Of a stretch of DNA of 64,000 bases, positions 2,264 to 62,536 are shown piece after piece. Source of the DNA: Bilabrum cf. latius (lineage: Eukaryota); contig OZ237748.1 of NCBI GenBank assembly GCA_965178125.1, positions 930,001-994,000 of the forward strand, read 5' to 3'. A model generated the notes under the pieces. The model was not told where the DNA came from. It worked only from the letters and a program-made list of their open reading frames with translations, and ran no database searches. The position numbers and the translations under genes were made by a program. Numbering within the stretch: position 1 is the first letter of the stretch; each line of letters begins with the position of its first letter.

Positions 2264-4230
2264 ATGTAAGCAAACGAAACGTACTGAGGCCGTGCCCTAT
2301 GTCGGGGTACGAAGGCTTATCCTAACATCGATGACAATCACGATGCGAACATTCGTTGCTGTTTTTGAAAGACTTCCATGCTCTATACGATTACTTTTGA
2401 CAGGGGAAACACGGTTATTAGCCTGTCAAAAGAGGGAAAGCATGAAGAGCTGCAAGAAATGCTTGACGACGGAGTAAGCGCAAATCGGAAGGATCTTGTG
2501 AGGAGATGCACTTTAGCCTTTAGAAGCCACGTTCCGTGGTGCTTCAGTCAGTAGCATATTGATAATTTAACCCATTCAACATAATGGTCTTGTCTCCAGG
2601 GATTGCGGGGCAATGCATCTGAGACGGTTCCATGTAGATTCTAGATTGGTTCGACATGCTCAAGCAGCCATTGGCAAACCGCAGATAGGCAGCACAGCGC
2701 TCATGTACGCGGCCACAAGGAAAAGCGTTGATTGCATGCAGGTACTACTCAGTGCTGGTGCGAAGCTGGACGATACCAACAAGGTAAGCGGGTCAATAAC
2801 ATTGCGCCTGCGATTGTCGCACATTTCGGAGTTGGCTTGTGCCGGGCCTCAAAGCGATGCATATGGGCAGCACCTGACTTCATAGTGATAGATCTGGCTA
2901 GCACCGTATGGTATGTATTTGCTGCAATGTATCTTTGTTCACACCACGATCGGATCCGACTCTACTCTGCTTGCACGCAGAACGGAGAGACTGCCTTACT
3001 GGCAGCCGCAACGAACCCGACTCAAGGTAGCTTGGAATGCATACGGTTTCTAACTGAAGCTGGAGCAGATATTGATACTGTAACCGACGTGAGGAGGGGC
3101 GTCATGGGCGCGCGAGTCACAATTTCCTTGGGACAACTGTGACCGATCCTAGTCGAGCATATGCTGCATTACTATGATCGCCAAAAGGAGCTTAAGACTT
3201 GGCTAGGAAGAATCGCTAGCGTATCGCAGGACGGCATGTCAGCGCTTACGACGGCACTAAGTACAGTGTGCGAAAGCTCTACCCTGTGCGTGTAGGCATT
3301 GCTGAAAGCTGGGGCAGACCCCGACTGGTGCAATAAAGTGAGAGTCGCCGAGTAGCAGCCCGTTCCAAGAACAAAATAAGCCTTCTCCACTATCAACCTA
3401 CATTCACTACCCGCTTTAAGTATATCATACCATTTATTTTACTCGTTGGGGTCTTAGGCAGGATACACTCCCGCGATGATTGCGGCACAGGCTGGTAGCC
3501 ACGCGTGCCTGAGACTCCTGCTTTAGAATGGCGTTCGCGTCAATTAGCAGGCTAACGTGGGATAACTGCCGATAGTAGACCGCTACTCGTGTTAACGCTA
3601 CTTTACGCGCGTAATGACTTAGGTAGCCAGCAAGTGCACGCCATACATCACCACAGGATGGAAACTCCGGCTTGCATTTAGCAGCAAGCCAAGGGAGAGG
3701 GGAAACCGCACTTGCTTTGCTGGAATATGGGGCCATTCCCTCTTTGATCAACAATGTAGGTACACTAGTATTTATTCGGGCTCAGCTCAAAAATGCGTTT
3801 GCCTGAAAGTCCACACCAGACCCATCAAGCATGCGGCTGATGCACTCTCAAAGACCACTACCTGCTAGGTTTCTGAGCTATTTCTGTCTAGCAGGTAGGC
3901 AAAACAGCTGTAGATTTGGCAGAAAGCAATGATCACCACAAAACGGTGGTATCGATCCGCAATTTTAAGTCGAGAACGCAAACACTGTACAGGTTTCGAC
4001 GGGCAGTGGAGGCCAAGCGGGATGCTGGCATGGTGTTCCAGGCGGCGAGCGAGGGCAGGCCCATGGAGCTGGCCAGGAGGCTGAGGTTGGGTAAGCTGGC
4101 CGGTGGGCTGGATATCACTGGAGAGGTAGAGGACGGTGCGGGCGGGACCAGGGTGGTGGGTCCACTGGATGCAGCTCGATTGGGGGGGCATGACGAGTGC
4201 GTACGGGTGCTTGAGCAGGCAACGGCATGA
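2264..4230 (+). CDS. Ankyrin-repeat protein, one repeat per exon, ending in the shared C-terminal cassette
   Basis: Exons 2264-2265 (AT), 2404-2497, 2685-2783, 2981-3088, 3230-3337, 3458-3556, 3657-3755 and 3895-4230, all GT-AG. Exons give GxT(P/A)L..AA..G....LL..GA repeats. In-frame TAG at 3293, 3524 and 3545; ends in TGA. Confidence 0.85.
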
Positions 4231-35671: not shown

Positions 35672-38600
35672 ATGGATGCGTCGAGCCCGCTGGACCGCTA
35701 CATGCGCGGGACACAATCCAGCGCTCGAAGGGAGCAAGCACTTGCCATTGGGCGAGCGATGTCTGCAGCGCCCTCCCCGGCGGCAGCCAGGCGCAGATCC
35801 AGCACCAGCCTTCCAAGGACAATCCACGCAAAGCAGTTCAATTTCAATGTGACAGACAGAGCCATGGATCTGATTTCAACGGCAGAGCGAGTGCTGAGAG
35901 CCGGCGACGAGGCCAAGAGGAGAGCCTACAGGATCGTGCACCAAAGCGGGGGCGAGGAGGAAAATCATGCAGGTGAAAGAGAAGCGGAGCAAAGTAAATC
36001 AAAGAATCTCGGGGCACAGCGGCGGGGCAGCGTCGCGAAGGCACCATCATATGCGGGCAAGGACAAGGGGGCGTCGGTGGGTGAAGATCCACTCCCACCG
36101 GGAGCCCACTCCCCGGCGTTTCAGTTTGCCGACTCCGCCGCCGCCCCCCTGCCCCGCGGACTGGGTCGCAGCGGAACCGACGCCACCCCACCGCCCCACA
36201 CCCCAGGCACTCGTCACACGGACACTCGTCACACCGATCGCATGCGCCGCCTGCTCGCGGTGTGGGACCGCGAGGGCAAGGGGGCGGTGTCGCCTGCCTA
36301 GCTGAGGGAGAGCATCGCTTGGATCGACGGGATGTGGGGGCACACGGGCGGTGGTGGTGGTGAAAGTGGCGTTAGTGTGACGAGTGGGAAGGATGGCAAG
36401 CGTTGTCATGCAAAGGTGAGCGACAAGCATAGCCCCATGCGCCGCAATGCGATGCACTGCATATCCCATCACTCCTTCCCATCCAATGCCGTGTGCTAGA
36501 AGCATCATTCCTCCATCACATATGATACGCACTACTGATACTCACACCACCATCACCACAGGCAGCAGCAGCAGCAGCAGCAGCAGCAACGGCATCAGAC
36601 CGGTGGGTTAGGAGACAGCCACGGCAGGTGGACGGCAGCATCCGGATCGACGACTTGGTGCAGCTGGGCGATTGGGGAGGAGGAAGCCACGATGGCGGGG
36701 CAGGCGTCACTCGTCACACAGAATCCTCCCGACGGGCCTCGATTCGGTCGCAAAGACAGGCGCAGGAGCAGGGGCAGAGGCAGAGGCGATCGTCCCTGGG
36801 TGGGTCGTCTGAGGCAGTGGCCACCCGCCGTGTGACGAGTGCGGTTAGGGGTCGCCGGCGGAGCGTCGCCTCCGTGTCCTCGGTGGACACTCGTCACACC
36901 GGCACCGCGCACCCTCGGTCCGCCTCGATGCCCCGCACGCCCCCGAATCGCCGCGCCGGGTCCGGGGCCGGGCAGCGAGCTGCCCAGGACCGATGGACCG
37001 GGGGCGGGGGGGGTTATGCCAGCAGTGGCAACGCAAGCGGTGTTGGTGATGGAAGGAGAGGGAGGGGGAGGGGGAGGGGGAGGAGGAGGAGCATTGCAAG
37101 TCTGGGGAGGAGCGGCAGCGTCGACAACGGAGGTGTGACGAGTGACGGCAGCCTCCGGATCAGCGTCCCTGCATTGCCACGGAGTGGGCGTGACAGCACT
37201 CGTCACACGCATGCGGGCAGCCTTATCGGTTCGCCACTGCGTCGCCGGCAGCAGCAGTAGCGGCAGCAGCATCCGAAGCAGAATGGGACCACCAGCACCG
37301 GCAGTGCATCTGCCTCAGCCTCTGCCTCTGCCTCTGCCTCTGCCTCTGCCCCTTCTCCGTCGGCTGCGGCTGCGGCTCATGATGATGATTAGGGTGCTGG
37401 TGCTGGTGCTGGTGCGAGGTCATCTCCCGGGGGCGACGATGGCGGCGGCACGCTAGCCTTCAATCGTCACACCAATCGCCGCCTCAGCAGGCGTGCCTCT
37501 GCCTCCACGGTCAACTCTAACGAGCTGCTGCGGCCCGCGTTGGTGGCATTCGGCAGGTGCAGCGCACGGCAGCGTACCCCGTCGCCCCCGATCCCCACCC
37601 GCCCGGACACCATGGCAATGCCCCCCCGCACCCGAACCGTCGACGAGACGCGCGGCCACGACTCGATGTTCCGCAGCGGCGCGGCGCCGTTTGCGACCAA
37701 GTCGGACTTGGAGGCGAAACCGACGCCCTCGCGGGAGGCACGATAGGTCGCAAGAGGGCAGGCCACCCCTCACTCGTCACACCTTGCCAAGGTGCTTCTC
37801 GCGGATGTACGTCGCCTCGGGGGCGGCAGGCTGCGGCAGGCCATTCGGAAGGCGAGGTCGGCCCATGGGCTGGACGCCGTGCCGGTGGGGGCGCTGGTGA
37901 GGGGTGTGACGAGTGCGCTCGGGGGCAAGGGGTTCTCGGAGGCGGCGCTGGGGGAAGTGGTGAGGCATTTCGGGGGGGGCGTGGGGTCGGGGGATGGAGT
38001 TAGCAACAGTGGCGGTTGGGGAAGAAGAGGAGGAGGAAGGGTGGATTTGGGCGCGCTGCAGGAGGCGGTGAGGGCGATCGAGAGGTGTGACGAGCGCGAG
38101 GTTGGGGGGCAGAATACCGTGCAGAGTAAGACGGCGATGGGCCAGAGCGAGGGCGGCAAGATGGACCGTGATCGTGACGAGTGGGAAGTGCAGAGGGCAT
38201 CGGCGCGTCGCAGAGCAAGCCTGCAGAGACAGAGGCTGATTGAGATAGAGGAATAGGGACATGCGGATGCACGGCACGGTGGTGCGATTCAGCGGAAGGA
38301 AGCCACTGGCCCTGATGCTGGTGCTGGTGCTGATGCTGGTCCCACTGCCACTGCCACTGCCACAGGGTAGATCGAGTCAAAGGTCACTGTACCAACTAAT
38401 CGCATGGGAGGGTTGATTTCCAGCCGAGTGAACGCAGTTCGACTCGTGAGGAGGAGGGGGTCATTCTCGCCCCCCGCGCGCTCCCCCATCGTAGGGGGGG
38501 GTACCCGAGGGGGTCAGGATAGCGGGGAGGGGTTACTGCCTGAGGGTCCATTGCAGCGGCAGAAGAATCGGCAGGACATCTGGCACCAGAGGGGACAGAG

Positions 38601-43605: not shown

Positions 43606-43726
43606 GGGTCACAGCCACACATGAAGACACGGCAGTAGGTTGAGCACGTACAGTGTTGCTAAGTGTGACGTGGCCATCAGATCCCGACAAGAACCGAGCA
43701 CTGTCCAAAGTGACAGGCCGATCAGG

Positions 43727-44330
43727 ACGCTGGACTAGGCCTATGAGATGGCCGATGCGTGGGCCGCGACCAAGACCGTGTGGGGGCTGCTGGCGCAAGG
43801 GAATGCGGCTGCGTCTGCCCTCCCCGGCAACGACAGGCTGTACAAGGACTCTGCCATCCCGAGGCTGCCCCAGGCCGGCAGGGAGCTGGAGGCCATCCTG
43901 AGGGGGCTGCTGCAGTCGCTGCCCAGGAATCGGTTGCGGCCCGATAGCACCATTGCTGCCCTGCGAGCCCTGCTGTACGGGCCCGGGAGCTGGGAGCAGG
44001 TGGAGCGGGCGGCTGGGGAGGGTGAGGCTGCGAGCGGTGGGATGATGGGCGGGTCCAGCGGTGGAGTCACTGGGGCTGCTTCGGGGGCGGGAGCGGGGGA
44101 TGCTGCATCGGCGACAGCAGCGGGTGCTGAAGCGGTTGGGTCTGGGCTGGTGGAGCTGGTCCGGGGCCAGCTGTGGGAGTGCGCGGCTGTGGATGCGGGG
44201 CGCACGGGGGTGGAGGGCGTGCCTGCCGCTGGTCTATCATGGGGCCTGGCTGGGCCTGCTCCCATGGTGCGGCTGCCGATCGGGGAGGAGGCGTATGAGG
44301 CGTTCGGGTGGGGCGAGCGGTTGTGTGTCC
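43727..44330 (+). pseudogene. Orphan near-identical duplicate of the kinase C-lobe (50790-51393)
   Basis: TL(D/A)(*/Q)AYEM(A/S)DAWAA...YKDSAIPRLPQAGRELEAILRGLLQSLPRNRLRP...EEAYEAFGWGER. Lacks the N-lobe, HRD and DFG, and is 3'-truncated. Confidence 0.85.
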
Positions 44331-45279
44331 CTGGGCTGTAAGCCTCGGCGATGTATCTGCGATTGCATATTCTTCCCATGACGGCATTGTGAACTGGGCA
44401 GTTAACTAAACATCCTGTCTGATCGCCCAATCCCGAGACCCATACTAACGCCATGTTCTAACATTGCTGCCCTGTCTTTGCCCGCGGCTTGCCACGGCCC
44501 CGGTGGTAGCCTCTTTACTCCCGAAGTCATCCATGTGCGTGTCCATCATCATATCGCACAATTTAGTGAATCGTTCAAGTATGACATGGAGAGCACGACC
44601 TCGCAATAAAGAGTGAAAGCTCCTCATGCACTGAGCGGCTTGCACTGCTTGAAGCACACGGATAGAAGCAACGATGGGCTCTGGAGAGTGAAACAAGCGG
44701 AGATGTAATGACCCGTGAGTTATCAATAGGTATGCAAAGGCTTCGTCTAATTTCTATGATGCATTTTATCCTTGTATAGTCTTCTATCGGAAACTCCGAA
44801 ACTCTGTAGAGCACCTGACCTAACTATAGCATTTATTATCCCGGGATTAGTTAACTTTAGCACCTGATAACTGCACTGTATAATACAAATGATTCGGAGC
44901 TGAAACGAGTTGTCAAGACCTAATTCCTGGCCAATAGAGGACTTGTCTGACGCAGAAACTACCTTGCTGAAGCAACTATATCTAGATTAGCATCTAACTC
45001 CGCCTGTGTCGCTGTATGCATTTGCGGCGGTGGGTAATTTGCTGTGTATCGTACTCGGGATTGTGGATGACGCAATTGTGTGCGGTTTGCGCAGGCTTCT
45101 CATCGATGCTTACCTACCATTAAGAGGTACATATGTTTGGAATATAGATGGTATCTAGTAGACGGATGCCGCTACACCAGCAAGGCTTCGTCAAATGTGC
45201 AAGTGGTACCTTTGCAGACTGCCTAGACACAAGCTGCACTTTTCGCACCCGGACATCCACCGAGTGTTAATAAGATGGG

Positions 45280-45900
45280 GGTACCGGCCTCCAGGATGAC
45301 AGTCAATAAGTATACGTAGCTGCGGTGCCCACCTCCACCTCCAGGACGGAAGCCACTGGTATCTGCATTCGCGGAGAAGGAGCTTGGGTTGCACCTCCGT
45401 AGAATGATCCGTTGCGGGGTATATTACACGGTGAAACAGGTCACGCAAATGGCACGATACCTTCAACTACGCACTGAAGAGGCATATAAAGCGGCAGGAA
45501 GATCGACGTCTGATTGTAACCTGGTAACAGATCCGTGGGTCCGCCGCCACCTCATGAGCGCTCGGAATGGCTTGTCCTTGCAGCTACCTGGTACCCTGGA
45601 TAAAGGACGTGCGGGCCTGTCCTGCGCTTAAATAGTTGGATGGAGACTTGGCTTCAAGCGGATGTGCAAGGAATTCGGAATTACTTCATGTTGGTTGCAC
45701 AACGTCGACGAGTCAGGCGTCATCCTGGAGAGCAAGAGCACCATCAAGTCCTGGAACAACAAAGGGAGGAGGGATCCGCGGACAGGGAGCTGGTCATCTG
45801 AAAAGAAACGCCAATTTTTCAATGTTGAAGCGGGGGGCTGTACACAAACAACTACTGGTGTCATGTGGATCAACGGCTAGGGAGACGTGCTCAAGCTGGT
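45280..45900 (+). mobile_element. Pogo/Fot1-type (Tc1/mariner superfamily) transposase relic: CENP-B-type HTH and start of the DDE domain
   Basis: Single frame GRKPLVSAFAEKELGLHL...VTDPWVRRHL...LDKGRA...IVGW...EFGI...LHNVDESG...TTTGVMWING*GDVL matches the pogo pattern (LD..RA...I..W...GI...N.DETG...NA.G). In-frame TAA at 45629. Rest of the DDE domain is absent and no TIRs were found. Confidence 0.65.
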
Positions 45901-47455
45901 GGACCCCCGGCGCCGGGCAGGCAGGCGGGGCGCCGGGGGCGACTGATGAAGCCATGTTGACCCTTTGCAAGGCCAAGAAGATTCCAGCTCGAAGCGATGA
46001 TATTGATGAAATTGCTGCTATCCACGCATTTTATGCGAAAATGGATGCAGGAGGCCGGGGCGGGAGCAGAGGCCGGGGCAGGGGAGGGGAGGAGGCGGGG
46101 CACGGAGCACGCGCAGGGGCAGCCTCCGGTGCTGGTGCACCAAAGGGGACCGCTGCGGATGCGGTAGATGGTCAAAGACCGATGACCGTGTAGCAGCAGT
46201 GTGATGCCATGGTCAATTCGGGAACGCTGCCTAGTGAGTTAGCGATCGGGGAGGAGTTCTTAGCCGAGGAAACCGAGGCAGTGCGCGACGTCGTCAGAAG
46301 GATGTAGGAGTGCTCCCGGGCGAAAACTGCGAAACTTGCATCAGCTCAGTCACAGCAGGCGTCCGCATCCGGCGGCGCAGGTGAGGCACCTGCCGCCGCG
46401 CAACTGACCGCACCGGACACTGCACCTCAGAACGGCAGGCTCGCCCAGGCACGGTACGGAGCGCTATCTTTGGAATAACACCAGAGAGATCGCATCGTAT
46501 TTTTATCTGCGAAGAAGAATGCGCAACAACAGTAGGTTACAGCGGCAACCACGGCTCTCCTTGACGGGCTGAAGCGCGAAAGGGAGGTCAGCGATGCATG
46601 GCAGCAGTACACCGCGAGCCTGAGCGAGTTGAGCAAAGCCAAAACACAGCTGGAGGAATCCCCGGGTATCACTATAACCAAGGCTTGATTCGAAACAAAC
46701 ATGGCGAATATGGAGGCAGCGAACGCCAAAATAACCGAGAAAATGGGGTTGTCATAGGCTGCCGTCGCAGCTGCTTAGGGCGAAGGCTAGTGACATGTCT
46801 GGACTCCTCCTGAGGCTCAAAGCCAGCATGAAGCACTCATATCCAGACAGTGTATGCATTTATAGTGTTTATTCAGGATGTGTCTATTTGCTAGTGCAAA
46901 TATGATCAGAAACGCCAGATAATTGCATTGCAAATAATTCGACGAGATCTTGGGGGAATCCGAAATATGTCGCACTATCAGACAAAAGAGGGCTTATCAG
47001 TTACTTTACACCGACAAAATTGATTATGGATGGTATTTTACATTATATCTCTCGTTTGTGGACCTGGAGGGCGCTAGTTGCACTAGAAAATCGCAGTGCT
47101 AAAGTTTCTGAACGATCCGCAGGCCAGAATTTTGCGCACAATCGGGCCAATTTCACCACTTGATATCTTAGCTCATAGGTAAAATCTTGCGAAGCAAGAC
47201 GCAGATAAAGCTACAGAATTCAATGAAGAATTGCTTGAGATAGCTCAGAAGTTCGCTGAGGGATTCCAGGGGTCATAGATGCTTCATGAAGATGGTGCAT
47301 AGGGGCTGCTGAAGATTCGTCAGGTGCTCTTATAAGTACTCTATTAAAAGGTGATGTTTCAGAAGACGCAAGATACGCGACGAGGATGAGATAGCATTTG
47401 CCATCTACTAACGCACGTGAATAACATCGCACTGCACGTAAAAGAAAAGGTCGTT

Positions 47456-50400
47456 ATGTAAGATTGATGGATGCACCTTGATTATATTGTCCAGATGCCA
47501 ACTTCCAGTATCATGAACGGCCCTGAGCATGGGAGCGGCTGTGTCCAACAATCAGGCCATTGACACACGTGCACTGCAGTTTTATACCATTCAGCATAGT
47601 AGCATTATGTGATTTGTATTATTTGGTTGCAGGGAAGATAAGCTGATGGACGCTGCCGAGAATGGCAACATAGCCGATCTGACAGTTTGCCTGGATCTGG
47701 GAACGGACATTGAACATAAAGATGCCGTAAGATTGGGGATCGCCGATGGCATGATGAGCTTAAGAAGCATACTATAGTAACCATTCGGTTGGATTATAAG
47801 TAAATATCAGCGGAGCTTGCCTCCAATTGACTGTAGTAGAACAATCAACCGCCATACTATGTGCTACTGTGTTAGATTTAGCCGTAGGTTCCCATTCATG
47901 GATATTTGGAATTTTATGATTGGTATTGAACGCAGCGTGGGCGCACAGCAGCATGGTGGGCTGCTTTCGAAGGACACGCGGACAGCCTGTAGCTTCTCAT
48001 TAAGAGGGGCGCTAACGTTAACGCTGCCGACGGGGTGAGGCAATTAGAGGCATCATGGCTGGGAATCATTAATAGTGCTATAGAATTGCTCATCTTGATC
48101 GCATATAGCGTTGTTGGGTGGTACTTTTTGATATTTTATGGAAACGCATCTTCATGGATGTGCTGGGCAATTGCGATTGTCAAGCCGTATCGATTGTTTA
48201 CATACTTGGGCCACTACTACTTCAGTAATGACTAACTTCCGCTGGCAGCATGTTCGCATTCAACATCCAACCCAAATATCTAGAACAGTACGGCATCACA
48301 CCGGCGCACGCGGCAGCCGAGAATGATAACTGCAAGTGCCTCCGGCTGATTGTGCAGCATGGTGGAGATACGAATGCACCAAACGGTGTGAGAAAATGAT
48401 ATAGATATTGCCTTAAGTGCCTGGATTTCGAGACCAAAATCGCTGTCCAGAAATGGAATAGAGCAGCAAGCTACATGATGGGTTTAGAACCAAGGCAGAT
48501 TCCCTTTGTTTGCTCTGGATGGACTTATATATAGTTTCACGGCCAAGATGTGCTTCAGCTCCTCTGTATTTATGTATATTAAGCTAGTTTTGTATAAATG
48601 CAACCCTCAGGATGGAGACACCCCGCTTCACAAGTCAGCTTACTATGGATGCTCCGTTTGCGCAAGCGTTCTCATGGAAGCAGGGGCCCACAGGGGCGCA
48701 AAAAATCGAGTGAGGTAGTCTGCGTGATCATCAATCCATTTACATCCTCTGAAATTTGCATAAGGATCGATTGCCTACGCTATTGACAACACCAAGCGGA
48801 CTCGCTCCCACGTCAATCTAGCAGCTTGGAAAAACGCCTGCTGACCGGGCAGATTCGAACGGCAAGACAAGGACTGGTGCATTCATTCGGTTGTATTCAA
48901 GTAAACTCCATGCCAGCGGTAGGGTTGCCGCTCACGGCGGGGCTTCAGGGAGTAGGGGCAGCACCGTTGGCGATGTAGCTACAGATGAGTTGCGTCGTGT
49001 AAAATAGCAGCTGGCGAAGTGCAAAGCCCAGGCGCGTGCCGATCACAAGCGGCTGAGAGAGCAGCGCGAGCAAATCAAGGCTGCGGCTGATAGGGAAGCA
49101 TGGGTAGCTAAATAGCATCACATGTACATGGAGCAAGCTACTGAGCGGCACCGCAAGGCGTTACAAGTCCGGAGCTAGCAGTATCGGCGTGCATTGCAGA
49201 CCAAATCCAAGTAGTGGCGCAGTATAATAGACGAACTTGAGGAGGAATACCGCATTGGAATGTCCGCCAAAGATTAGTAGCTGGCACAGCTCCAGGCTCA
49301 GCTCAATGCTCCAATCTATCGTACCCCTTTTGGGGAAGCATGCCACGCGCTGGTCGTCGATGTGGAGGCGGGGCAGCTGTCCAGCCTTGTAGAGGGCATG
49401 GGGGACGATCCTGCAGCCATCGGGAGGGCGCTGCGGGCCCGGCTTGGGCTGGACGGTGGAACGATAGACGATGATATTGAGGGGCAGCTGGCTCTGAGCA
49501 TGGGTCGGCATCGTGCTGCGTAGCAAGACCTGGAACTTGGGGCCGTGGCAGGTGGGGACTGGTTCGGGCATCTGCATGGCCAGTTGAAGTACGCCGTCGA
49601 TGGCTATGGTCGTCTGGATCTCGGGACGGTGCTGCCGCCCGAGGAGTTGGAGACTGGGCTCATCGGCGGGCGAGGTCGAGTGATAGAGGCAGGGCCGGCC
49701 AAGCGGCGCCCCGGCCGCGCGTCTGTCTTTGCTGCTGGGCAGCTGCCCGACTCTGCCTCGATGGCCGCGATCGAGGCCGGGCGCATCCCTCCGCTGAACC
49801 TGCCAGCGGGCAAGGAGGGGGCAAGTCAAGGAGTCAACGGCTTCGTGTTTGCGGTGGAGGTGGCGCGGCGTGGGCCAAGGGGTGCCGGCATGGCAGGGGC
49901 AGAGGGAGGGGCTGGGTCTGGGAGTCGATCGCCCGTGCGGCTGGCGCTGAAAGGACTGCTTCCATTCGCGCAGGGCAACTCGTACTACTCGGACCGCGTG
50001 ATCGGGCAGCACCGTGAGGAGTGGAGGGTGCCTCAGGTGGTGGGCGGGCACAGGAACATCGTGCCAGTTAGACACGCGTTCTTCGGTTCTGCTATGCTGT
50101 TGCTGCCCTGGGTGGCCACGGCATTTGCGTAGGAAGGACAGATCGTGAGGCGCACCACCTGGCTGGCCATGCCCCTGTACCCCACGAGCCTGAAATCGGC
50201 TGCAGGGGACATGCCATGCACGGGGCCCAGGGAGGCGGCGCTGTGGCTGCTGCAGGCACTCGAGGCGATCTAGCACATGCAGACGAGGGGGGCGGTGCAC
50301 CGTGACATCAAGGCGGACAACTTCTTCCTGGCCGGAGATGGACGTCTGGTGCTGGGCGATTTTGGAGCGGGCTGTCTGCTCTTCCACGGGGGCAGGGCAG

Positions 50401-51536
50401 CTGACCTGGAGGTGGAGTTCCAGGAGAGGCAGCGGCAGCAGTCACAGGATCACGCGGCCGCTGTGGGTGCGGGTCCAGGGGCAGCTGACCCCGAGATGGG
50501 GACAGGTGGTGCGGCAGACGGGAGCGATGTGGCGGAGAACAGAGACGGAGTAGAAGTAGAAGAAGACGAAGAGGAAGAGGAAGAGGAACAAGAGGAAGAC
50601 GAAGGAGAAGCCGATGGGACGCAGTGCATTCCCCGGGAGGCATTCGAGCAGGCGGGTGAGGGATCCAAACACGCTCCCTTCACCATTCCAGCGATCAATT
50701 AGGGCGGTGCGGGTGACAGTCGATCCCCCGAGCTGATGGCCATGGGCAAGCTGAAGGTCACCAAGGACTCGAGAGGAAAGCTGCTCGAGACGCTGGCCCA
50801 GGCCTACGAGATGTCCGATGCGTGGGCCGCGGCCAAGACCGTGTGGGGGCTGCTGGCGCAAGGGGATGCGGCTGCGTCTGCCCTCCCCGGCAACGACAGG
50901 CTGTACAAGGACTCTGCCATCCCGAGGCTGCCCCAGGCCGGCAGGGAGCTGGAGGCCATCCTGAGGGGGCTGCTGCAGTCATTGCCCAGGAATCGGCTGC
51001 GGCCCGAGAGCGCCATTGCTGCCCTGCGAGCCCTGCTGTACGGGCCCGGGAGCTGGGAGCAGGTGGAGCGAGCGGCTGGGGAGGATGAGGCTGCGAGCGG
51101 TGGGATGATGGGCGGGTCCAGCGGTGGAGTCACTGGGGCTGCTTCGGGGGCGGGAGCGGGGGATGCTGCATCGGCGACAGCAGCGGGTGCTGAAGCGGTT
51201 GGGTCTGGGCTGGTGGAGCTGGTCCACGGTCAGATGCGGGAGTGCGCGGCTGTGGATGCGGGGCGCACGGGGGTGGAGGGCGTGCCTGCCGCTGGTCTAT
51301 CATGGGGCCTGGCTGGGCCTGCTCCCATGGTGCGGCTGCCGATCGGGGAGGAGGCGTATGAGGCATTCGGGTGGGGCGAGCGGCGATGTGTCCAAGGAGA
51401 GGCGAGCCTGTGGGACCAGTTCCTGCGGCGGGAGGTGCTGCTGCGGGGGGGCGGGCCGGATGGGTCTGCGGCTTGCATGGCCAAGGACTGCGGGGAGCTG
51501 GTGGAGGCGGTGAGGAGGTTCGGGCAAGGAGAGTGA
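47456..51536 (+). CDS. Ankyrin repeats + coiled coil + PINK1-like Ser/Thr protein kinase
   Basis: Exons 47456-47457 (AT), 47633-47726, 47936-48034, 48289-48387, 48611-48709 and 48825-51536. Kinase motifs SQGVNGFVF, LALK, HRNIV, HRDIKADN, LGDFG, GG.G...SPE, DAW. Eleven in-frame TAG; ends in TGA. Confidence 0.85.
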
Positions 51537-54753: not shown

Positions 54754-55465
54754 CCACACCAACAGAGAATGCATGCATCATCATCAGTTCGAGCCGAGCA
54801 CGAATTTGGACAAGGCGCAATCAAACATAATCATATTCATACTATCTGGATTTTGAGTTTCGAGACACCGTGGTGAGACCCCTTCAAGATACATTCGTTC
54901 GTGCCTCACACTCGCGCCTTCGTTCCGAAAAGTAAGCACCGCTCTATCGACGGACAATTCAAAAAACGCAAAATATGTCAAGTTCATCAAGTCTTGATTT
55001 GGATTTCGCCGCTCCTTCGCTAGAAAGTGCCCGACAGGCGTTCATTCCCACTTGTATCAACCCCGGGCCTTCTCCCGACTGCAGCCAAAGCCCGCTTTAG
55101 CTCAGCTTGGACGTGAAAACGTGGGGGAATGACGCTTTCCACATTTCCAAATCCGTACCATGACCGCTTTGGTCTAGAGGTTCCTACTGGTAGTACGCCG
55201 TGATGCCGTCCGGTCCACTGCCTCTGCCAGGGAGAGAATATCGCAGGTGATTGATTGTGGTGACTCCTAGCACGTATGATTCAGCTCGAAAGGTATGAAT
55301 CTTGCAATCAATTCAATTCAAGCCGTTCAGCGAAGACGCATCACGCTTGCACGTGCGCCAACAAGGCAAGAGCGGGTTTCGCCGTGATGCCGGATTGGCA
55401 TCGTTGGGAACCGGATCGCACGCCATATGTGCTCTCACGACCGCCGTACAAAAGCACACCACTCT

Positions 55466-57145
55466 TCACGGCTTCTGGGACTCGCGCACATATTCAAACA
55501 CTTTCTTAAAGGCGTCAGTCGGGTATCCCTCCGGGATCAGCGGGGGGGTGGAGAAGAGCGCTCGTTCAAACGTATGCCAGATACCATGGCGCGAGGCCTG
55601 CTGCCGCAGGATCAAATTGCCCGATTGTAGGTCCAGCACCCTGGCCGTGGGACGCATGTAGGACGTGTCGGTGCTCCACAGATACACCCCGCTGTCCATG
55701 TCCACGAGAGCAAGATCCCCCACGCGGTCGCACTCATCCCCCGTGATGACGAGTGCGCACTTCTCGGTCTTGCCCTTCGTCTCTGATTTCCAGGTCTTGC
55801 CTCCCTCTGCGAAGGTCTCCACAAGGTCGCAATCGGACTATAACGTTAGAGAGGCGTCCTTGTTGTCCAATTGCAGCATATGGCCCTTGCGCATGATCTC
55901 ATCGTCCCACAGTGACTACCCAATGGCGGCAGGTCGCTTGGCGAGCGCCTTTGGATCGCAGTGAGGGCGATTCCCATTGATGGCCGCCTGCAGCGCAACC
56001 GTCTTGAGACCGTTGCCGAAAGTCTCGTCTTCGTCAGGACCATCCAGGTCTTCTGACCCCGTAGACCACACGATCGCATTTCCCTGCTGGTGCAGGATAA
56101 CATTTCCATCCCCCTGCACACGAAGGGTATCTGCACCCGGGTCCATCAGCGAGGTGGGCACCCGCCAGATGTACTGCCCGGAGGCGCTGTCCACGATGGC
56201 CAGGTCGCCCTGTGTATCGCACCCGTCCCCCGTGATGACGAGTGCGCACTTCCCCTCGGTCCCCTTGCCCGCCGTGTGGGTCGCAAACACCGCCTCGCCC
56301 TCTCGGTGGACCACCAGGTTGCAGTCTCCCTGCATGCGCAGCTCGACCCCCTCCTCGCCCGCCTTCAGGGCGGCCCCGGCTTGCAGCACCTGCCTTGGAG
56401 ACAGCACGTCGCCGCCGGTCACTTGGTTGTATGATGATTGCAAGGCCCCAGCATCGCAATGCAAGCTATGCACGTCCTCCCGCACCTCCAGATCGAAGTG
56501 GAACTTCCCGAAACCCTGCTTCGTGTCGTAGTAATCGGTGCCCCAAAGCGGCTTTCCGCCTTCGTGAAAGAGTACAGCATTGCCATCCCCCTATGCCAGA
56601 AACGTGTCCACTTCTGGTGTAAAGATAGAGGATTGCACCCGCCAGAGGTACATGCCCGTATCCGTGTCGATGATGGCCAGGTCTCCTTGCGTGCTGCACG
56701 ACGCATCCGTCAAGAGCAGCGCGCAATGCTCGGCATGAGCCTCGGTGTCGCCCGAAACGAACGAACCCAGTTTGTCATTGCGAATAACGACCAAATTGCA
56801 ATCTTTCCGCAGCCGCACTACTGTCGAACCTTTGGACAAGGCATTATCGAATGGGCCCGCGGCAGAGTGCAGAATCTCGCCTCTCTGTAGCCTGTCACCC
56901 TTTGCTGGCTTTTTCCTCGCGGCCAAGGCGCTCACATCGCAGGAATATATGCTAACTTTATCAAATTTGAAGTCGAAAATTGAGTCTTTGCGGCTATGCT
57001 GCCTGCTGCTGCTGGTGGGGATAGAGACCGACGACATCATGGAGCCAGCGCTGCGAAGGTGCTGCTGGCCTTTTGCTCGTCGCCCGTGCACAGTGACCGC
57101 CGAGCAGGCGACAAGAGCTAGTAAAATGGAAACAATTAATTGCAT
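55466..57145 (-). CDS. Secreted 559-aa protein with three tandem bulb-type (GNA-like) lectin domains
   Basis: Signal peptide MQLIVSILLALVACSAVTVHG. Motifs LRMQGDCNLVV, VQGDGNVIL, QGDLAI.D....Y.W. Three track ORFs join in one frame through TAG at 56591, 55916 and 55838; ends in TGA. Confidence 0.8.
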
Positions 57146-57804
57146 TCTTGCAGATTACTTTGTGTTGATGCAGTGGACGGCAAGGGGACGAGCCGGAATC
57201 GGGGCCAGATCCCCGCGAGGCTACACAAGGGGGGGTGAATGGCTCGGGGTGAATGACTCCAAAAAGGGGTGCACCCCCCCACCCCACCCCCAGCCCCTCC
57301 TTTGACCTGGCCTAATATGCATCCACTCAACAATTTGACCAGATAACCGGTTTGTATACATTATTTAAATGATTCTAACACCGGATGGGGTTCTGTGTTG
57401 ATGCCAGAGTGGGAGCGCGTGAATGTCTCGTTGGGTTCCGATGGCGGTTGCGACTGGGAAGGTGCGACCCAGCCAACAGGTTGCTAGCGATGACGCGCAT
57501 ACCCTCTCTGTGTTCAGGAGAGGGACGGAGATTGGGCAATTTTTGCCCACCCTCCCAACCCCCTCCTCCTCGGCGGAGTAGTGCACGTGCTCTTCCCAGC
57601 CCCGGTCAGTCCGGTCAAGGGTCGCGCACAGGCACAGCTTTGTCAGGTCTTGCCATGTCTGATTGTTAACGAGACTAGGTTGCGCGTACACTCTGGCATC
57701 AATACTATTGTGGTGTTATTTGCCTAAATGGTGTCCTTGCAAAGTGTAGTTGAAACTGTTAGGATGAGTCAAATTGTCAATCCGCCGTACGAAAGCAACC
57801 CCCT

Positions 57805-59050
57805 TCACGGCTTCTGGGACTCACGCATATACTCAAACACCTCCTCAAAATCTTCACCCGGGTATCCCTTCGGGATCAGCGGGTGTCCTGAATTACGTGA
57901 CTGTCAGATGTATTCGCGCGTGGCTTGCTGGCGCAGAATCAATGAACCCCCCAATACCTCCAGCACCCTGGCCGTGGGAAGCATGTAGGACGTGTCGATG
58001 CTTCACAGATACACCCCGTTGTCCATGTCCACGAGAGCAAGATCCCCCACGCGGTCGCACTCCTCCCCCGTGATGACGAGTGCGCAATTACGTGCGTTCT
58101 TGTACTCCAGAAATCGTATGAATGCGCTCTGGTAAATTGCAGGTCGCACTTGTCCCTTAGCCGTAGAGGGATTTGGTAATACTCCCTGAAGAGCAGCTTC
58201 CCTCTGCCGAGCAACTCATTGCTCCACAAGAACTCCCCCTTGGCGGCAGGTCGCTTAGCAAGTGCCTTTGGATCGCAGTGAGGGCGATTCCCATTGATGG
58301 CTGCCTGCAGCGCAACCGTCTTGAGACCGTTGCCGAAAGTCTCGTCTTCGTCAGGACCATCCAGGTCTTCTGACCCCGTAGACCACACGATCGCATTTCC
58401 CTGCTGGTGCAGGATAACATTTCCATCCCCCTGCACACGAAGGGTATCTGCACCCGGGTCCATCAGCGAGGTAGGCACCCGCCAGATGTACTGCCCGGAG
58501 GCGCTGTCCACGATGGCCAGGTCGCCCTGTGTATCGCACCCGTCCCCCGTGATGACGAGTGCGCACTTCCCCTCGGTCCCCTTGCCCGCCGTGTTGGTCG
58601 CAAACCGTGCTTCGCCCTCTCGGTACACCACGAGGTTGCAGTCTCCCTGCATGCGCAGCTCGGCCCCCTCCTCGCCCGCCTTCAAGGCGGCCCCGGCTTG
58701 CAGCACCTGCCTTGGAGACAGCACGTCGCCGCCGGTCACTTGGTTGTATGATGATTGCAAGGCCCCAGCATCGCAATGCAAGCTATGCACGTCCTCCCGC
58801 ACCTCCAGATCGAAGTGGAACTTCCCCCTCCTGTGCTCTTCGGGCCCGTGGCTGCTGCCCCAAAGCGGCTTTCCGCCTTCGTGAAGGAGAACAGCATGGC
58901 TGTCCACCTGGGCCACAAACGTGTCAACCTTGGGTGTAAAGATAGAGGACTGCACCCGCCAGAGGTACTTGCCAGTATCCGTGTCGATGATGGCCAGGTC
59001 TCCTTGCGTGCTGCACGACGCATCCGTCATGAGAAGCGCACAGTGGTCGG
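57805..59050 (-). pseudogene. Tandem lectin paralog, inactivated
   Basis: Near-identical to 55466-56730 centrally. Frameshift at ~58090, TGG>TGA at 58003-58005, and no signal-peptide region upstream. Confidence 0.8.
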
Positions 59051-59321
59051 TCCCGTCAGTTGTGTGCCGTAGGTACGGAGGCACGTTACGAAGTGATTTA
59101 GATCGGAGAGATTGTGTAGTATTGGTCGCAAGTCCGAGCGCAGATGTGAGGCTCTCACTTGTTCGGAATTTCGGTGGCACCTGTGTTCTACAGCTGTGCC
59201 CCGATATTCTCAGTAATAATTGTCATTATGTGGCAATACACACTGGGAAGACAGGCAGGGGCAACTCCATAGGAGGTGATTCCCACTGCTTGATGTTTTG
59301 AACTGGTCCAGCGGGAGGATG

Positions 59322-62300
59322 ATCACCTCGACTCTAGGTCGGGCTGTTCACACCTGTTGCACGGATTGCATGATTGTTTTGCATTTGCTTGGAGTTGCAG
59401 GTACACTTGATGTGTTCTGCTCTCTCCATGTGCTCAAGCATCTTCGCTTGTGGCGCTGGGGAGATTTCCAGCCAAGACTGGCGTTGCCACCTCTGCGGTG
59501 CCTTCGCTGTCTTGATGCACAATTTGCATGACGTGATATAAATAATTCCATGCTGGATAGTGTTTGCTTGGTGGACTGTGCGGCTGTTGTAGTCGCTGCC
59601 GGGACTGTTGTTCTTGGCTGTCTCAAGCGGCACGCGGCAGGAGGTTGCTCACCTCGACTCTAGGTCGGGCTGTTCACACCTGTTGCACGGATTGCATGAT
59701 TGTTTTGCATTTGCTTGGAGTTGCAGGTACACTTGATGTGTTCTGCTCTCTCCATGTGCTCAAGCATCTTCGCTTGTGGCGCTGGGGAGATTTCCAGCCA
59801 AGACTGGCGTTGCCACCTCTGCGGTGCCTTCGCTGTCTTGATGCACAATTTGCATGACGTGATATAAATAATTCCATGCTGGATAGTGTTTGCTTGGTGG
59901 ACTGTGCGGCTATTGTAGTCGCTGCCGGGACTGTTGTTCTTGGCTGTCTCAAGCGGCACGCGGCAGGAGGTTGATCACCTCGACTCTAGGTCGGGCTGTT
60001 CACACCTGTTGCACGAATTGCATGATTGTTTTGCATTTGCTTGGAGTTGCAGGTACACTTGATGTGTTCTGCTCTCTCCATGTGCTCAAGCATCTTCGCT
60101 TGTGGCGCTGGGGAGATTTCCAGCCAAGACTGGCGTTGCCACCTCTGCGGTGCCTTCGCTGTCTTGATGCACAATTTGCATGACGTGATATAAATAATTC
60201 CATGCTGGATAGTGTTTGCTTGGTGGACTGTGCGGCTGTTGTAGTCGCTGCCGGGACTGTTGTTCTTGGCTGTCTCAAGCGGCACGCGGCAGGAGGTTGA
60301 TCACCTCGACTCTAGGTCGGGCTGTTCACACCTGTTGCACGGATTGCATGATTGTTTTGCATTTGCTTGGAGTTGCAGGTACACTTGATGTGTTCTGCTC
60401 TCTCCATGTGCTCAAGCATCTTCGCTTGTGGCGCCGGGGAGATTTCCAGCCAAGACTGGCGTTGCCACCTCTGCGGTGCCTTCGCTGTCTTGATGCACAA
60501 TTTGCATGACGTGATATAAATAATTCCATGCTGGATAGTGTTTGCTTGGTGGACTGTGCGGCTGTTGTAGTCGCTGCCGGGACTGTTGTTCTTGGCTGTC
60601 TCAAGCGGCACGCGGCAGGAGGTTGATCACCTCGACTCTAGGTCGGGCTGTTCACACCTGTTGCACGGATTGCATGATTGTTTTGCATTTGCTTGGAGTT
60701 GCAGGTACACTTGATGTGTTCTGCTCTCTCCATGTGCTCAAGCATCTTCGCTTGTGGCGCTGGGGAGATTTCCAGCCAAGACTGGCGTTGCCACCTCTGC
60801 GGTGCCTTCGCTGTCTTGATGCACAATTTGCATGACGTGATATAAATAATTCCATGCTGGATAGTGTTTGCTTGGTGGACTGTGCGGCTGTTGTAGTCGC
60901 TGCCGGGACTGTTGTTCTTGGCTGTCTCAAGCGGCACGCGGCAGGAGGTTGCTCACCTCGACTCTAGGTCGGGCTGTTCACACCTGTTGCACGGAATATT
61001 CCATGCTGGATAGTGCTTGCTACTTTGGCCGGGCAGTCGTGCTTGTTGTCGTCTCGACAAACTTAGCGCCCTGCCCACCGGACATTTCGTTTCGGGTTTT
61101 GCCATGCAAGTAGCAGCATGCAGCAGGAGCGCGATCACCTCGACTCCAGGTCGGGCTGTTCACACCTGTTGCACGGATTGCATGATTGTTTTGCATTTGC
61201 TTGGAGTTGCAGGTACTCTTGATGTGTTCTGCTCTCTCCATGTGCTCAAGCATCTTCGCTTGTGGCGCTGGGGAGATTTCCAGCCAAGACTGGCGTTGCC
61301 ACCTCTGCGGTGCCTTCGCTGTCTTGATGCACGATTTGCATGACGTGATATAAATAATTCCATGCTGGGTAGTGCTTGCTACTTTGGCCGGGCAGTTGTG
61401 CTTGTTGTCGTCTCGACCAACTTAGCGCCCTGCCCACCGGACATTTCGTTTCGGGTTTTGCCATGCAAGTAGCAGCATGCAGCAGGAGCGCGATCACCTC
61501 GACTCCAGGTCGGGCTGTTCACACCTGTTGCACGGATTGCATGATTGTTTTGCATTTGCTTGGAGTTGCCGGTACACTTGATGTGTTCTGCTCTCTCCAT
61601 GTGTTCAGGCACCTTCGCTTGAGCTCTGGGGAGATTTCCAGCCAAGACTGGCGTTGCCACCTCTGCGGTGCCTTCGCTGTCTTGATGCACAATTTGCATG
61701 ACGTGATATAAATAATTCCATGCTGGATAGTGTTTGCTTGGTGGACTGTGCGGCTGTTGTAGTCGCTGCCGGGACTGTTGTTCTTGGCTGTCTCAAGCGG
61801 CACGCGGCAGGAGGTTGATCACCTCGACTCTAGGTCGGGCTGTTCACACCTGTTGCACGGATTGCATGATTGTTTTGCATTTGCTTGGAGTTGCAGGTAC
61901 ACTTGATGTGTTCTGCTCTCTCCATGTGCTCAAGCATCTTCGCTTGTGGCGCTGGGGAGATTTCCAGCCAAGACTGGCGTTGCCACCTCTGCGGTGCCTT
62001 CGCTGTCTTGATGCACAATTTGCATGACGTGATATAAATAATTCCATGCTGGATAGTGTTTGCTTGGTGGACTGTGCGGCTGTTGTAGTCGCTGCCGGGA
62101 CTGTTGTTCTTGGCTGTCTCAAGCGGCACGCGGCAGGAGGTTGCTCACCTCGACTCTAGGTCGGGCTGTTCACACCTGTTGCACGGATTGCATGATTGTT
62201 TTGCATTTGCTTGGAGTTGCAGGTACTCTTGATGTGTTCTGCTCTCTCCATGTGTCCAAGCATCCTCGCTTGTGGCCCTGGGGAGATTTCCAGCCAAGAC

Positions 62301-62400
62301 TGGCGTTGCCACCTCTGCGGTGCCTTCGCTGTCTTGATGCACAATTTGCATGACGTGATATGAAATTCCATGCTGGATAGTGTTTGCTGGGTGGATTTTA
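59322..62400. repeat. Satellite-like tandem array, 326-bp unit, ~10 units, two with an alternative ~125-bp block
   Basis: Units start at ~59322, 59648, 59974, 60300, 60626, 60952 (internally deleted), 61134, 61493, 61818 and 62144. The alternative block is at ~61015-61133 and ~61374-61492. Confidence 0.95.
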
Positions 62401-62536
62401 GGGCGGCTATCGTCGTCGCTGCCAGCACCTTGTCATCGTACTTTCGTCACAATGTTAAAAGTACTCACTACAAGCTAAATCAGAGCATATCTGTGGTCGC
62501 GACGTCACGGTCGCGACGTCACTCACTCAGGTCGAC

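Follow-up and report, generated by a model that had tools for sequence, protein, structure and literature searches.

UAG as a sense codon, most probably for glutamine, in a 64-kb window of eukaryotic DNA

We propose that in the window analysed here, the whole 64-kb stretch of DNA, UAG is in all likelihood a sense codon and most probably specifies glutamine, with UGA as the main terminator and UAA as the second. Judged from the DNA itself, TAG is clearly translated, since both homology and the coding signal continue across it, and glutamine is the sole residue that fits all informative sites. The code of the window would probably be a table-15-like one, another case of a rare but previously described change, that of UAG to glutamine. 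The window has about 57% G+C and its content is eukaryotic, including Nop56/58, prenyltransferase-alpha repeats, a PINK1-like kinase and one-repeat ankyrin exons.

Reading frames and terminators of the window

The 14 long frames of the window (9,880 codons) contain 47 in-frame TAGs. Twelve of these frames carry at least one, whereas none, at lengths of up to 1,810 codons, has an internal TAA or TGA; out of frame, in the 19,760 codons of the two alternative frames over these stretches, there are 358 TGA, 110 TAG and 55 TAA. With the standard code the longest frames are 980, 654 and 599 aa. Opening TAG doubles these lengths (to 1810, 1285, 1075 and 927), while opening TAA has no effect on them. 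Termination at TGA and TAA is retained: 11 of the 13 closed long frames end at TGA and two at TAA, and the TGA of lectin gene A coincides with the end of its homologues. A GC3-rich codon pattern persists in frame past every TAG of lectin gene A and of the 1810-codon frame, for which we found one relative, of 128 aa, spanning no TAG site. The Nop frame has no TAG in 599 codons.

The kinase gene (Table 1) has 11 in-frame TAGs, at positions 48819, 49005, 49113, 49176, 49212, 49275, 49278, 49521, 50130, 50271 and 50700, and its Pfam Pkinase match runs across TAG 50271. Contigs from sequencing runs of three studies match the kinase region 48825-49641, TAGs included, without any letter difference. 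In the 76 smaller frames, whose translations were judged by eye, only ankyrin repeats were recognised. Searches of the 64-kb window with ARAGORN and Rfam found no tRNA gene, and no eRF1 gene was seen in it. When GTDB genomes were scanned for paired occurrences of a 12-mer of the window, 21 stretches were returned; their G+C content ranges over 33-74%, and several contain the 12-mer in arrays. They are unrelated bacterial repeats and do not represent the lineage of the window.

Table 1. Coordinates of the features discussed (X in a peptide stands for TAG; x for the TAG-encoded motif position).
Feature	Position	Strand	Description
Lectin gene A	55466..57145	-	Single 559-codon frame, ATG 57143-57145 to TGA 55466-55468; in frame 3 TAG, 0 TAA, 0 TGA
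TAG, lectin codon 185	56591..56593	-	First position of otherwise intact sugar-site motif x-G-D-G-N-A-V-L-F; domain 1, sub-domain III
TAG, lectin codon 410	55916..55918	-	Hypervariable linker joining lectin domains 2 and 3
TAG, lectin codon 436	55838..55840	-	First position of degenerate motif x-S-D-C-D-L-V-E-T; domain 3, sub-domain I
Lectin copy B (aligned part)	57805..59050	-	DNA alignment to gene A, 85% identity
CAG opposite TAG 56591	58908..58910	-	In lectin copy B
PINK1-like protein kinase	48753..51536	+	927 codons, ends TGA; PINK1 match E 5e-11
TAG in partial 3' kinase copy (43625-44338)	43736..43738	+	Opposite CAG 50799-50801
TAG in ankyrin repeat CVXALLKAGAD	3293..3295	+	Exposed helix position; Pfam Ank bits Q 20.1, E 20.2, K 20.9, R 20.4, L 16.7
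TAG in ankyrin repeat SLXLLIKRGAN	47990..47992	+	Repeat position as at 3293; Pfam Ank bits Q 33.4, E 33.4, K 34.1, R 33.7, L 29.9
TAG in EF-hand-like loop DREGKGAVSPAX	36299..36301	+	Position 12 of the loop; main hint for Glu
TAG within CAG tract	37258..37260	+	CAG CAG TAG CGG CAG; peptide RRRQQQXRQQH

Residues opposite TAG in the lectin genes

Lectin gene A has a hydrophobic, signal-peptide-like N-terminus and three bulb-type (GNA-like) lectin domains. It scores 47.4 bits against Pfam B_lectin PF01453 (cut-off 32.4) and matches the Polygonatum, Scilla, Gastrodia and garlic lectins in the PDB (E 2e-8 to 1e-6), and lectin homology flanks all three of its TAGs. The sequences MQGDCNLVVH and VQGDGNVILH of domain 2 align to the sugar-site motif of solved lectins, and domain 1 has XGDGNAVLF; we take QxDxNxVxY to be this motif of bulb-type lectins, in name and in role, the role being predicted here. 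Two of the three TAGs fall on the six motif-glutamine positions of sub-domains I and III, for which the chance in 559 codons is about 3 x (6/559)^2, or ~3e-4; on this estimate, their placement is beyond chance.

The TAG at 56591 is the strongest single site for glutamine. The initial annotation had set it, in the peptide FLAXGDGNAVL, opposite CAG 58908 of a paralogue, and our alignment of the lectin copies at the DNA level, with identity in 1083 of 1279 columns, confirms the pairing. Across 146 distant homologues, the corresponding position of the motif (x.D.N.V.[YFHW]) is Q in 984 of 1,015 instances, with R in four, E in three, L in two, and K and Y in none. An unbiased phmmer search with X in the query gave Q in 32 of 37 stretches of this column and, among the PDB matches listed, Q is found in eight of nine stretches and T in one. 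Both close homologues that cover the position agree, with CAG in copy B and Q in relative P0151. Together with the motif count, this agreement supports the glutamine assignment that had been proposed for UAG.

At the TAG at 55838, the motif is degenerate (x.D[CG]D.V), and its 31 instances show Q in 16, R in six and E in three. The phmmer column, again with X in the query, has Q in eight of ten stretches; the seven PDB matches listed have Q in four and E, R and H in one each; and relative P0001 has Q. The initial annotation had placed both TAGs at the Q of QxDxNxVxY, which is glutamine in 984 of 1,015 and 16 of 31 motif instances, respectively. Its alignment of LTLXSDCDLV with LRMQGDCNLV needs a qualification: the match exists, but it pairs different sub-domains, and the orthologous position in the positional paralogue, copy B, is AGG (Arg). 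As for the third TAG, at 55916, close homologues have GAG (E, copy B), R (P0001) and Y (P0151), eight distant stretches have eight different residues, and the site is uninformative on residue identity. The GAG opposite it, already raised as a contrary hint, is real but weak, given the hypervariable column. Pfam B_lectin scores for eight readings of TAG spread over ~2 bits or less and are uninformative on the residue because the profile's aligned stretch includes neither motif TAG.

Copy B is without the N-terminal region, has an in-frame TGA opposite a TGG of gene A and, over its 3' third, contains gaps that break the frame; its appearance is that of a pseudogene or a gene fragment. Both lectin copies terminate in ESQKP-TGA, and the sequence of relative P0004 finishes at the matching place. 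Contigs of the sequencing runs indicate a multi-copy lectin family; the 40 differences listed of 981 leave the lectin TAGs untouched, and no clean independent contig among them confirms these TAGs. No lectin homologue of similar length to gene A was found, the shorter ones amounting to only five fragments on two contigs (P0019 and P0001 on one; P0003, P0151 and P0004 on the other), and a JGI metagenome scan with the lectin core returned 15 loci, all 29-40% identical, with no close relative. In public protein collections, the relatives' lectin genes are represented by two or three fragments per contig. In favour of glutamine, the frame of relative P0019 is interrupted, by a stop that may be of any type, at precisely the position of CAG 312 in gene A, and picks up again on that contig after six residues. 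Against it, three further breaks in relatives' frames coincide with E, N and V residues of gene A, all within variable stretches.

Alternative amino acids and stop function

Only some seven of the window's TAG sites have any counterpart to align with, and nearly all the weight falls on two of them; both decisive sites lie in a single gene of a multi-copy family whose neighbouring copy is decayed. The two kinase copies are 92.7% identical over 205 aa, and the alignment bears out the earlier pairing of TAG 43736 with CAG 50799; because the partial copy may be a dead fragment, this TAG is weak evidence. When frames of at least 80 aa were compared among themselves, most TAG pairings fell in frames of doubtful coding status. 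Opposite the TAG at 22548, three paralogues have Gly and a fourth has Ser, which counts against glutamine. The coordinates quoted by the initial annotation all hold, for TAG and CAG positions and on both strands, as do its lectin peptides, RRRQQQXRQQH, AKDXXLAQLQAQL (TAGs 49275 and 49278, plus strand) and the ankyrin peptides CVXALL (3287), SLXLLI (47984), CMQVLL (2733) and CLQALI (40629).

Glutamate, a meaning of UAG reported in some ciliates, is disfavoured by these sequences, and we consider it an improbable reading. Only the EF-hand-like loop and, by a small margin, a single variable position of the kinase favour it over glutamine. In the loop, position 12 is E in all ten covering calmodulin stretches among the matches listed (best E-value 0.006), and EF-hand_6 gives 14.2 bits for the E reading against 12.3 for Q. 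However, the cut-off is 25, so that the match is sub-threshold under any reading, and loop positions 3 and 5 are non-canonical; the hint, which the initial annotation had itself flagged, is real but weak. At TAG 50271, the alpha-E position of the kinase, the best PDB matches have Asp (human PINK1) and Glu (NIK), and Pkinase scores 38.3 bits with E against 37.5 with Q, a difference of 0.8. The GAG opposite TAG 55916 and a GAG GAG TAG GAA GAG tract at position 54 point the same way. Against these stand the lectin motif, where Glu occupies three of 1,015 intact and three of 31 degenerate instances, and a rough sum over the seven sites of ~10 bits for Q over E. The residues around TAG are also unlike those around Glu: a neighbour-residue test ranked Glu eighth at TAG sites, whereas at real Glu sites Glu came first in 75 of 100 resamples and seventh or lower in three of the 97 resamples listed (100 run).

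In the same test Gln comes fourth, behind Leu, Arg and Ala, and the test could be read in favour of a different residue (Leu, Lys, Arg or Tyr), a reading that we hold to be very unlikely. After Q, Arg is the most frequent residue of the degenerate lectin motif (six of 31); it is also the copy B residue opposite TAG 55838, and the TAG at 15702, in a frame of doubtful coding status, faces TAT and TAC in two repeats. The intact lectin motif speaks against all four, with Leu in two of 1,015 instances, Arg in four, and Lys and Tyr in none, and the EF-hand_6 match vanishes with Leu, Lys or Arg. Leu scores below Q at six of the seven alignable sites, losing 3.4 and 3.5 bits at ankyrin sites 3293 and 47990 and 2.3 bits at the kinase site, and is 0.1 bit lower at the seventh.

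The remaining alternatives concern termination. Context-dependent stop codes have been described for Condylostoma and karyorelicts, and UAG could similarly mean glutamine within genes and stop near 3' ends. A TAG occurs in the last 13 codons of three of the 13 closed frames, against an expectation of ~0.8 from the overall rate of 47 in 9,880 codons (Poisson p ~0.05): TAG 34285 immediately precedes TAA, and TAGs 39724 and 36497 lie eight and twelve codons before TGA. These numbers are small, however, and the frame ends are putative gene ends, while the end fixed by homologues is a TGA, shared by gene A and copy B and matched in place by P0004; we hold dual use to be unlikely. Less likely again, and in our judgement extremely so, is that TAG is a stop only, its in-frame occurrences arising from dead genes, leaky read-through, assembly error or U-to-C mRNA editing. 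Copy B and the kinase fragment do look dead, and the lectin family is multi-copy. Yet TAG occurs in 12 of the 14 long frames and TAA or TGA in none, even though out-of-frame TGA outnumbers out-of-frame TAG threefold; the presence of as many as 11 TAGs in a single gene rules out leaky read-through; the kinase-region TAGs recur in independent runs; and editing would give Gln too. We know of no U-to-C editing at such a scale in nuclear genes.

A single glutamine meaning for all TAGs would presumably involve a tRNA-Gln with anticodon CUA, one base from the usual CUG, and a release factor that has lost its recognition of UAG. Transitions from CAG to TAG would then be silent, and TAG would be expected to build up at former glutamine codons, including those for the sugar-binding glutamine of the lectin motif.

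Comparison with known variant codes

A code in which UAG specifies glutamine is what we take NCBI table 15 to be, and in many ciliates UAA and UAG both encode glutamine. Standard-code gene models of this organism would all be broken and its relatives' lectins are fragmented, so annotation needs a table-15-like code.

The same codon and amino acid are described for crAss-like phages, where TAG encodes glutamine in 'genetic code 15' (PMC9523058); those are bacteriophage genomes, whereas the window carries eukaryotic genes. Both UAA and UAG are described as glutamine codons in ulvophycean green algae (PMC2984419) and hexamitin diplomonads (PMC5304391). Such lineages resemble the window in having a stop-to-glutamine change, probably by way of a tRNA-Gln anticodon change. 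A code of this kind (table 6 type) was rejected for the window, since opened TAA leaves the longest frames as they were and two frames end at TAA.

UAG encodes leucine in uncultivated phyllopharyngean ciliates (PMC11687900) and in the insect-dwelling rhizarian exLh, in which 82 of 86 hyperconserved TAG positions are Leu (PMC5304391). The window and exLh are alike in that UAG alone is reassigned, UAA and UGA terminate, and a conserved gene that is probably highly expressed (Nop in the window) lacks the codon. However, TAG falls on conserved Leu in exLh, whereas in the window Leu lies below Gln at alignable sites; with Leu in two of 1,015 lectin motif instances and 2.3-3.5 bits under Q at the ankyrin and kinase sites, this code was likewise rejected.

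Changes of UAG but not UAA are known from just a handful of eukaryotic lineages (PMC5304391, PMC11687900). With every further case one can test if UAG and UAA are separable in mechanism, and which of the stop codons takes over. There is a slim chance that the window represents a eukaryotic lineage without a known variant code in which UAG was uncoupled from UAA independently, UGA became the main terminator and UAG means glutamine as well as stop near some 3' ends. The closest counterparts of the table-15-like reading are the fornicate Iotanema spirale (PMC5304391) and the ciliates Hartmannula sinica and Trochilia petrani (PMC11687900), all with UAG as glutamine and UAA and UGA as stops. The window shares with them the reassignment of UAG alone, the inferred glutamine and the retention of UAA as a stop. 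In these three species, however, UAA is described as the primary or preferred stop (PMC5304391, PMC11687900), whereas in the window 11 of 13 closed frames end at TGA at ~57% G+C. A GC-rich genome whose genes end at UGA and which reads UAG as glutamine would, if true, be an unusual combination.

TAG is a translated codon

We find that TAG is translated in the window. Fourteen long frames bounded by TAA and TGA, and for that reason by construction devoid of both, comprise 9,880 codons and hold 47 in-frame TAGs, with at least one in 12 of the 14 (the exceptions being the Nop56/58-type gene, of 599 codons, and one other). Since the two alternative frames over these stretches hold 358 TGA, 110 TAG and 55 TAA in 19,760 codons, TGA-free frames of such length cannot be due to chance. 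Translating TAG as sense, with TAA and TGA kept as stops, extends the longest frames from 980, 654, 599 and 488 to 1810, 1285, 1075 and 927 amino acids; opening TAA leaves them unlengthened (980, 654, 599 and 498), and TAA is not a sense codon. The 13 closed frames end in TGA (11) or TAA (2).

Lectin homology runs in one frame before, between and after all three TAGs of lectin gene A, TAG 50271 lies inside a Pkinase match, and GC3 values of 0.63-0.82, higher than GC2, persist past every TAG in the lectin gene and the 1810-codon frame. Across 48825-49641, contigs from runs of three studies, one covering 44268-49699, show zero differing letters, with the caveat that the window itself may stem from the best-matching run. 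Assembly slips can be dismissed as the origin of the TAGs, at least over the stretches open to this check; the contigs listed included no clean independent one for lectin gene A.

The residue at TAG codons

Behind a hydrophobic N-terminus, MQLIVSILLALVACSAVTV, which by eye resembles a signal peptide, lectin gene A encodes three domains of the bulb lectin type, for which Pfam B_lectin gives 47.4 bits (cut-off 32.4); among solved structures, bulb lectins of monocots and bacteria match it down to E 2e-8. Its three in-frame TAGs are codons 185, 410 and 436. The adjacent copy B looks like a dead copy because it is missing the N-terminal part, has TGA opposite a TGG of gene A and carries frame-breaking gaps in its last third. 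Summed contig depth in X1, one sequencing run compared with the window, is 1,000-2,400 over the lectin copies (55216-58999) and about 11,900 in the intervening spacer (57118-57751), versus about 99 on single-copy sequence (40000-42500); the lectin family is multi-copy, and the spacer is a high-copy repeat.

TAG 56591 (codon 185) occupies the first position of x-G-D-G-N-A-V-L-F, with all other motif residues intact. In 146 distant homologues (152 proteins minus six close fragments), the first residue of x.D.N.V.[YFHW] is Gln in 984 of 1,015 instances, the rest being Gly 6, Ser 6, Arg 4, Glu 3, Ala 3, Pro 3, Leu 2, and Asp, Phe, Asn and His 1 each. Gln stands opposite the codon in 32 of 37 phmmer stretches, where X in the query avoids bias, and in 8 of 9 stretches of the PDB alignments shown (Thr in one; the five chains include two that are nearly identical). 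The site is covered by two close homologues, which agree: copy B has CAG (58908), bearing out the initial annotation, and P0151, a fragment from a relative's contig, has Gln (74% identical).

The motif that TAG 55838 (codon 436) opens, x-S-D-C-D-L-V, is degenerate. Of 31 occurrences of x.D[CG]D.V, 16 start with Gln, 6 with Arg, 3 with Glu and the remaining six with a different residue each; Gln fills 8 of 10 phmmer columns, and the PDB stretches have Gln 4, Glu 1, Arg 1 and His 1. The pairing originally proposed, with the Gln of LRMQGDCNLV, holds across sub-domains only: the positional paralogue, copy B, has Arg (AGG), and the relative's fragment P0001 has Gln. At TAG 55916 (codon 410), in a linker, three close homologues have Glu, Arg and Tyr and eight distant stretches eight different residues, so that it carries no information on the residue. 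Frame P0019, on the same relative's contig as P0001, breaks off precisely where gene A has CAG 312, in between identical flanks, and P0001 takes up the frame six residues on; three further frame breaks in relatives fall opposite Glu, Asn and Val in variable stretches.

Only about seven TAGs in the window can be aligned. With Gln, Glu, Lys, Arg and Leu, Pfam Ank scores 20.1, 20.2, 20.9, 20.4 and 16.7 bits at TAG 3293 and 33.4, 33.4, 34.1, 33.7 and 29.9 bits at TAG 47990, and is flat across readings at TAG 42853; judging from these profiles, the ankyrin sites exclude a hydrophobic reading, with no separation of Gln from Glu, Lys or Arg. At the corresponding position, the window's paralogous ankyrin repeats read by eye Q, Q, G, D, R, R and E. 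TAG 43736 does lie opposite kinase CAG 50799, as annotated, in a partial copy that may be dead. Gln follows TAG in 6 of 46 cases (baseline 6.1% after Gln, 3.6% after Glu), and the likelihood of neighbouring residues ranks Leu, Arg, Ala and Gln as the top four, in that order, and Glu eighth; as calibration ranked Glu top in 75 of 100 resamples of true Glu sites, and Gln first to fifth in 80 of 100 of true Gln sites, the test counts against Glu and is otherwise barely informative.

Taken together, these comparisons make glutamine the probable meaning of UAG. A rough seven-site sum (two lectin motif, three ankyrin, one kinase and one EF-hand-like TAG), adding Pfam bit differences to log2(frequency/background) from the two lectin tallies with approximate backgrounds, gives by hand arithmetic about +14 bits for Gln, +3 for Glu, +1 for Arg, -5 for Lys and -15 for Leu, with two sites dominating. 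Doubt remains, as both decisive sites belong to a single gene, whose family is multi-copy and evolves fast. The coordinates and peptides initially annotated were all correct in the sequence, including the contrary hints towards glutamate. TAG 36299 is position 12 of an EF-hand-like loop, opposite Glu in 10 of 10 calmodulin-type stretches shown (EF-hand_6: Glu 14.2, Gln 12.3 bits; no hit with Leu, Lys or Arg), but the loop stays under the Pfam cut-off of 25 bits with any reading, its best PDB E-value is 0.006, and it has Glu at position 3 and Lys at 5, where canonical EF-hand loops have Asp, Asn or Ser. Kinase TAG 50271 scores highest with Glu (Glu 38.3, Lys 38.0, Gln 37.5, Arg 37.4, Tyr 36.9, Leu 35.2 bits), although the column is variable (Asp in human PINK1, Glu in NIK), and the GAG opposite TAG 55916 belongs to a hypervariable linker in a copy that has decayed. 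A lectin motif position that is 97% Gln is not outweighed by any of these hints, and we consider glutamate quite unlikely.

TAG falls within the last 13 codons of 3 of the 13 closed frames (34285, 39724 and 36497; one immediately before TAA), where about 0.8 would be expected, and UAG may still terminate some genes; a context-dependent code in which UAG means glutamine or stop is unlikely. Some residue other than Gln or Glu is very unlikely, given the same site scores, and that UAG is not sense at all, against the homology running through the lectin TAGs, is the least likely reading.

Gene content of the window

The window has a G+C content of about 57% and, by Pfam, eukaryotic genes for a Nop56/58-type snoRNP protein, prenyltransferase alpha-subunit repeats, a protein kinase and ankyrin repeats. 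The absence of TAG from all 599 codons of the Nop56/58-type gene fits avoidance of a reassigned codon in highly expressed genes, a pattern described for ribosomal proteins of exLh, an insect-dwelling rhizarian. An extended acidic insert follows DFG in the kinase, whose N-terminal part resembles a coiled coil and contains 8 of the 11 TAGs. Short plus-strand frames at 2733, 3287, 40629, 41732, 42403 and 47984 each contain a single ankyrin repeat and close with ...(N/D/T)(K/G/T)V before unrelated sequence. Such an arrangement points to exons of a single repeat each, separated by GT introns, and hence to a genome not devoid of introns. A conserved module of about 80 residues (RRAVEAKRDAGMVFRAASEGRPMELARRLRLGKLAGGLDITGEVEDGAGG...GGHDECV) matches ankyrin weakly, and one of its five copies has TAG opposite Gly or Ser of the others. 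The 12-mer GTGTGACGAGTG lies mostly within long frames, encoding GVTS, CDEC, ALVTP, HSSH or TRHT by frame and strand; the sole frame that would yield TGA is never used.

Features of the window
Feature	Position	Strand	Remarks
Lectin gene A	55466-57145	-	559 codons with TAG open; ATG 57143-57145, TGA 55466-55468
Lectin copy B	57805-59050	-	DNA 85% identical to gene A
Nop56/58-type gene	28097-29896	-	Pfam Nop 232.7 bits; 599 codons
Kinase frame	48753-51536	+	best solved relatives PINK1, E 5e-11
Partial 3' kinase copy	43625-44338	+	
Module of ~80 aa	3877-4227	+	
Module of ~80 aa	6616-7392	-	
Module of ~80 aa	20703-22175	+	
Module of ~80 aa	22272-23393	-	
Module of ~80 aa	43231-43602	+	
Repeat protein, no Pfam match	3-2156	+	about eight repeats ...(D/E)RL(Y/F/H)...TF(K/R)P.I...
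Tandem array	59229-62446		period ~326 bp; frames offset by 326 bases 97-100% identical
12-mer, examples	735, 762, 1146, 1905/1923, 31456-31492, 32437-32485, 36209/36224, 38948-39020		30 copies on plus, 9 on minus strand in 64 kb

Decoding and comparison with known codes

TAG is translated here and its alignment columns are Gln-like; by analogy with known codes of such kind, decoding would rely on a tRNA-Gln(CUA), one anticodon base off CUG, and on an eRF1 blind to UAG. Iotanema spirale (PMC5304391), Hartmannula sinica and Trochilia petrani (both PMC11687900) are described as having reassigned UAG alone, to Gln, and a change of UAG to Leu is described in exLh (PMC5304391) and in uncultivated phyllopharyngean ciliates (PMC11687900). 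Among the papers listed in our literature search, none described a GC-rich, UGA-terminating lineage with UAG as Gln. The main stop is UAA in Iotanema spirale, Hartmannula sinica, Trochilia petrani, exLh and those phyllopharyngeans, whereas it is UGA in the window. The window's code is probably another case of the already known change of UAG to Gln.
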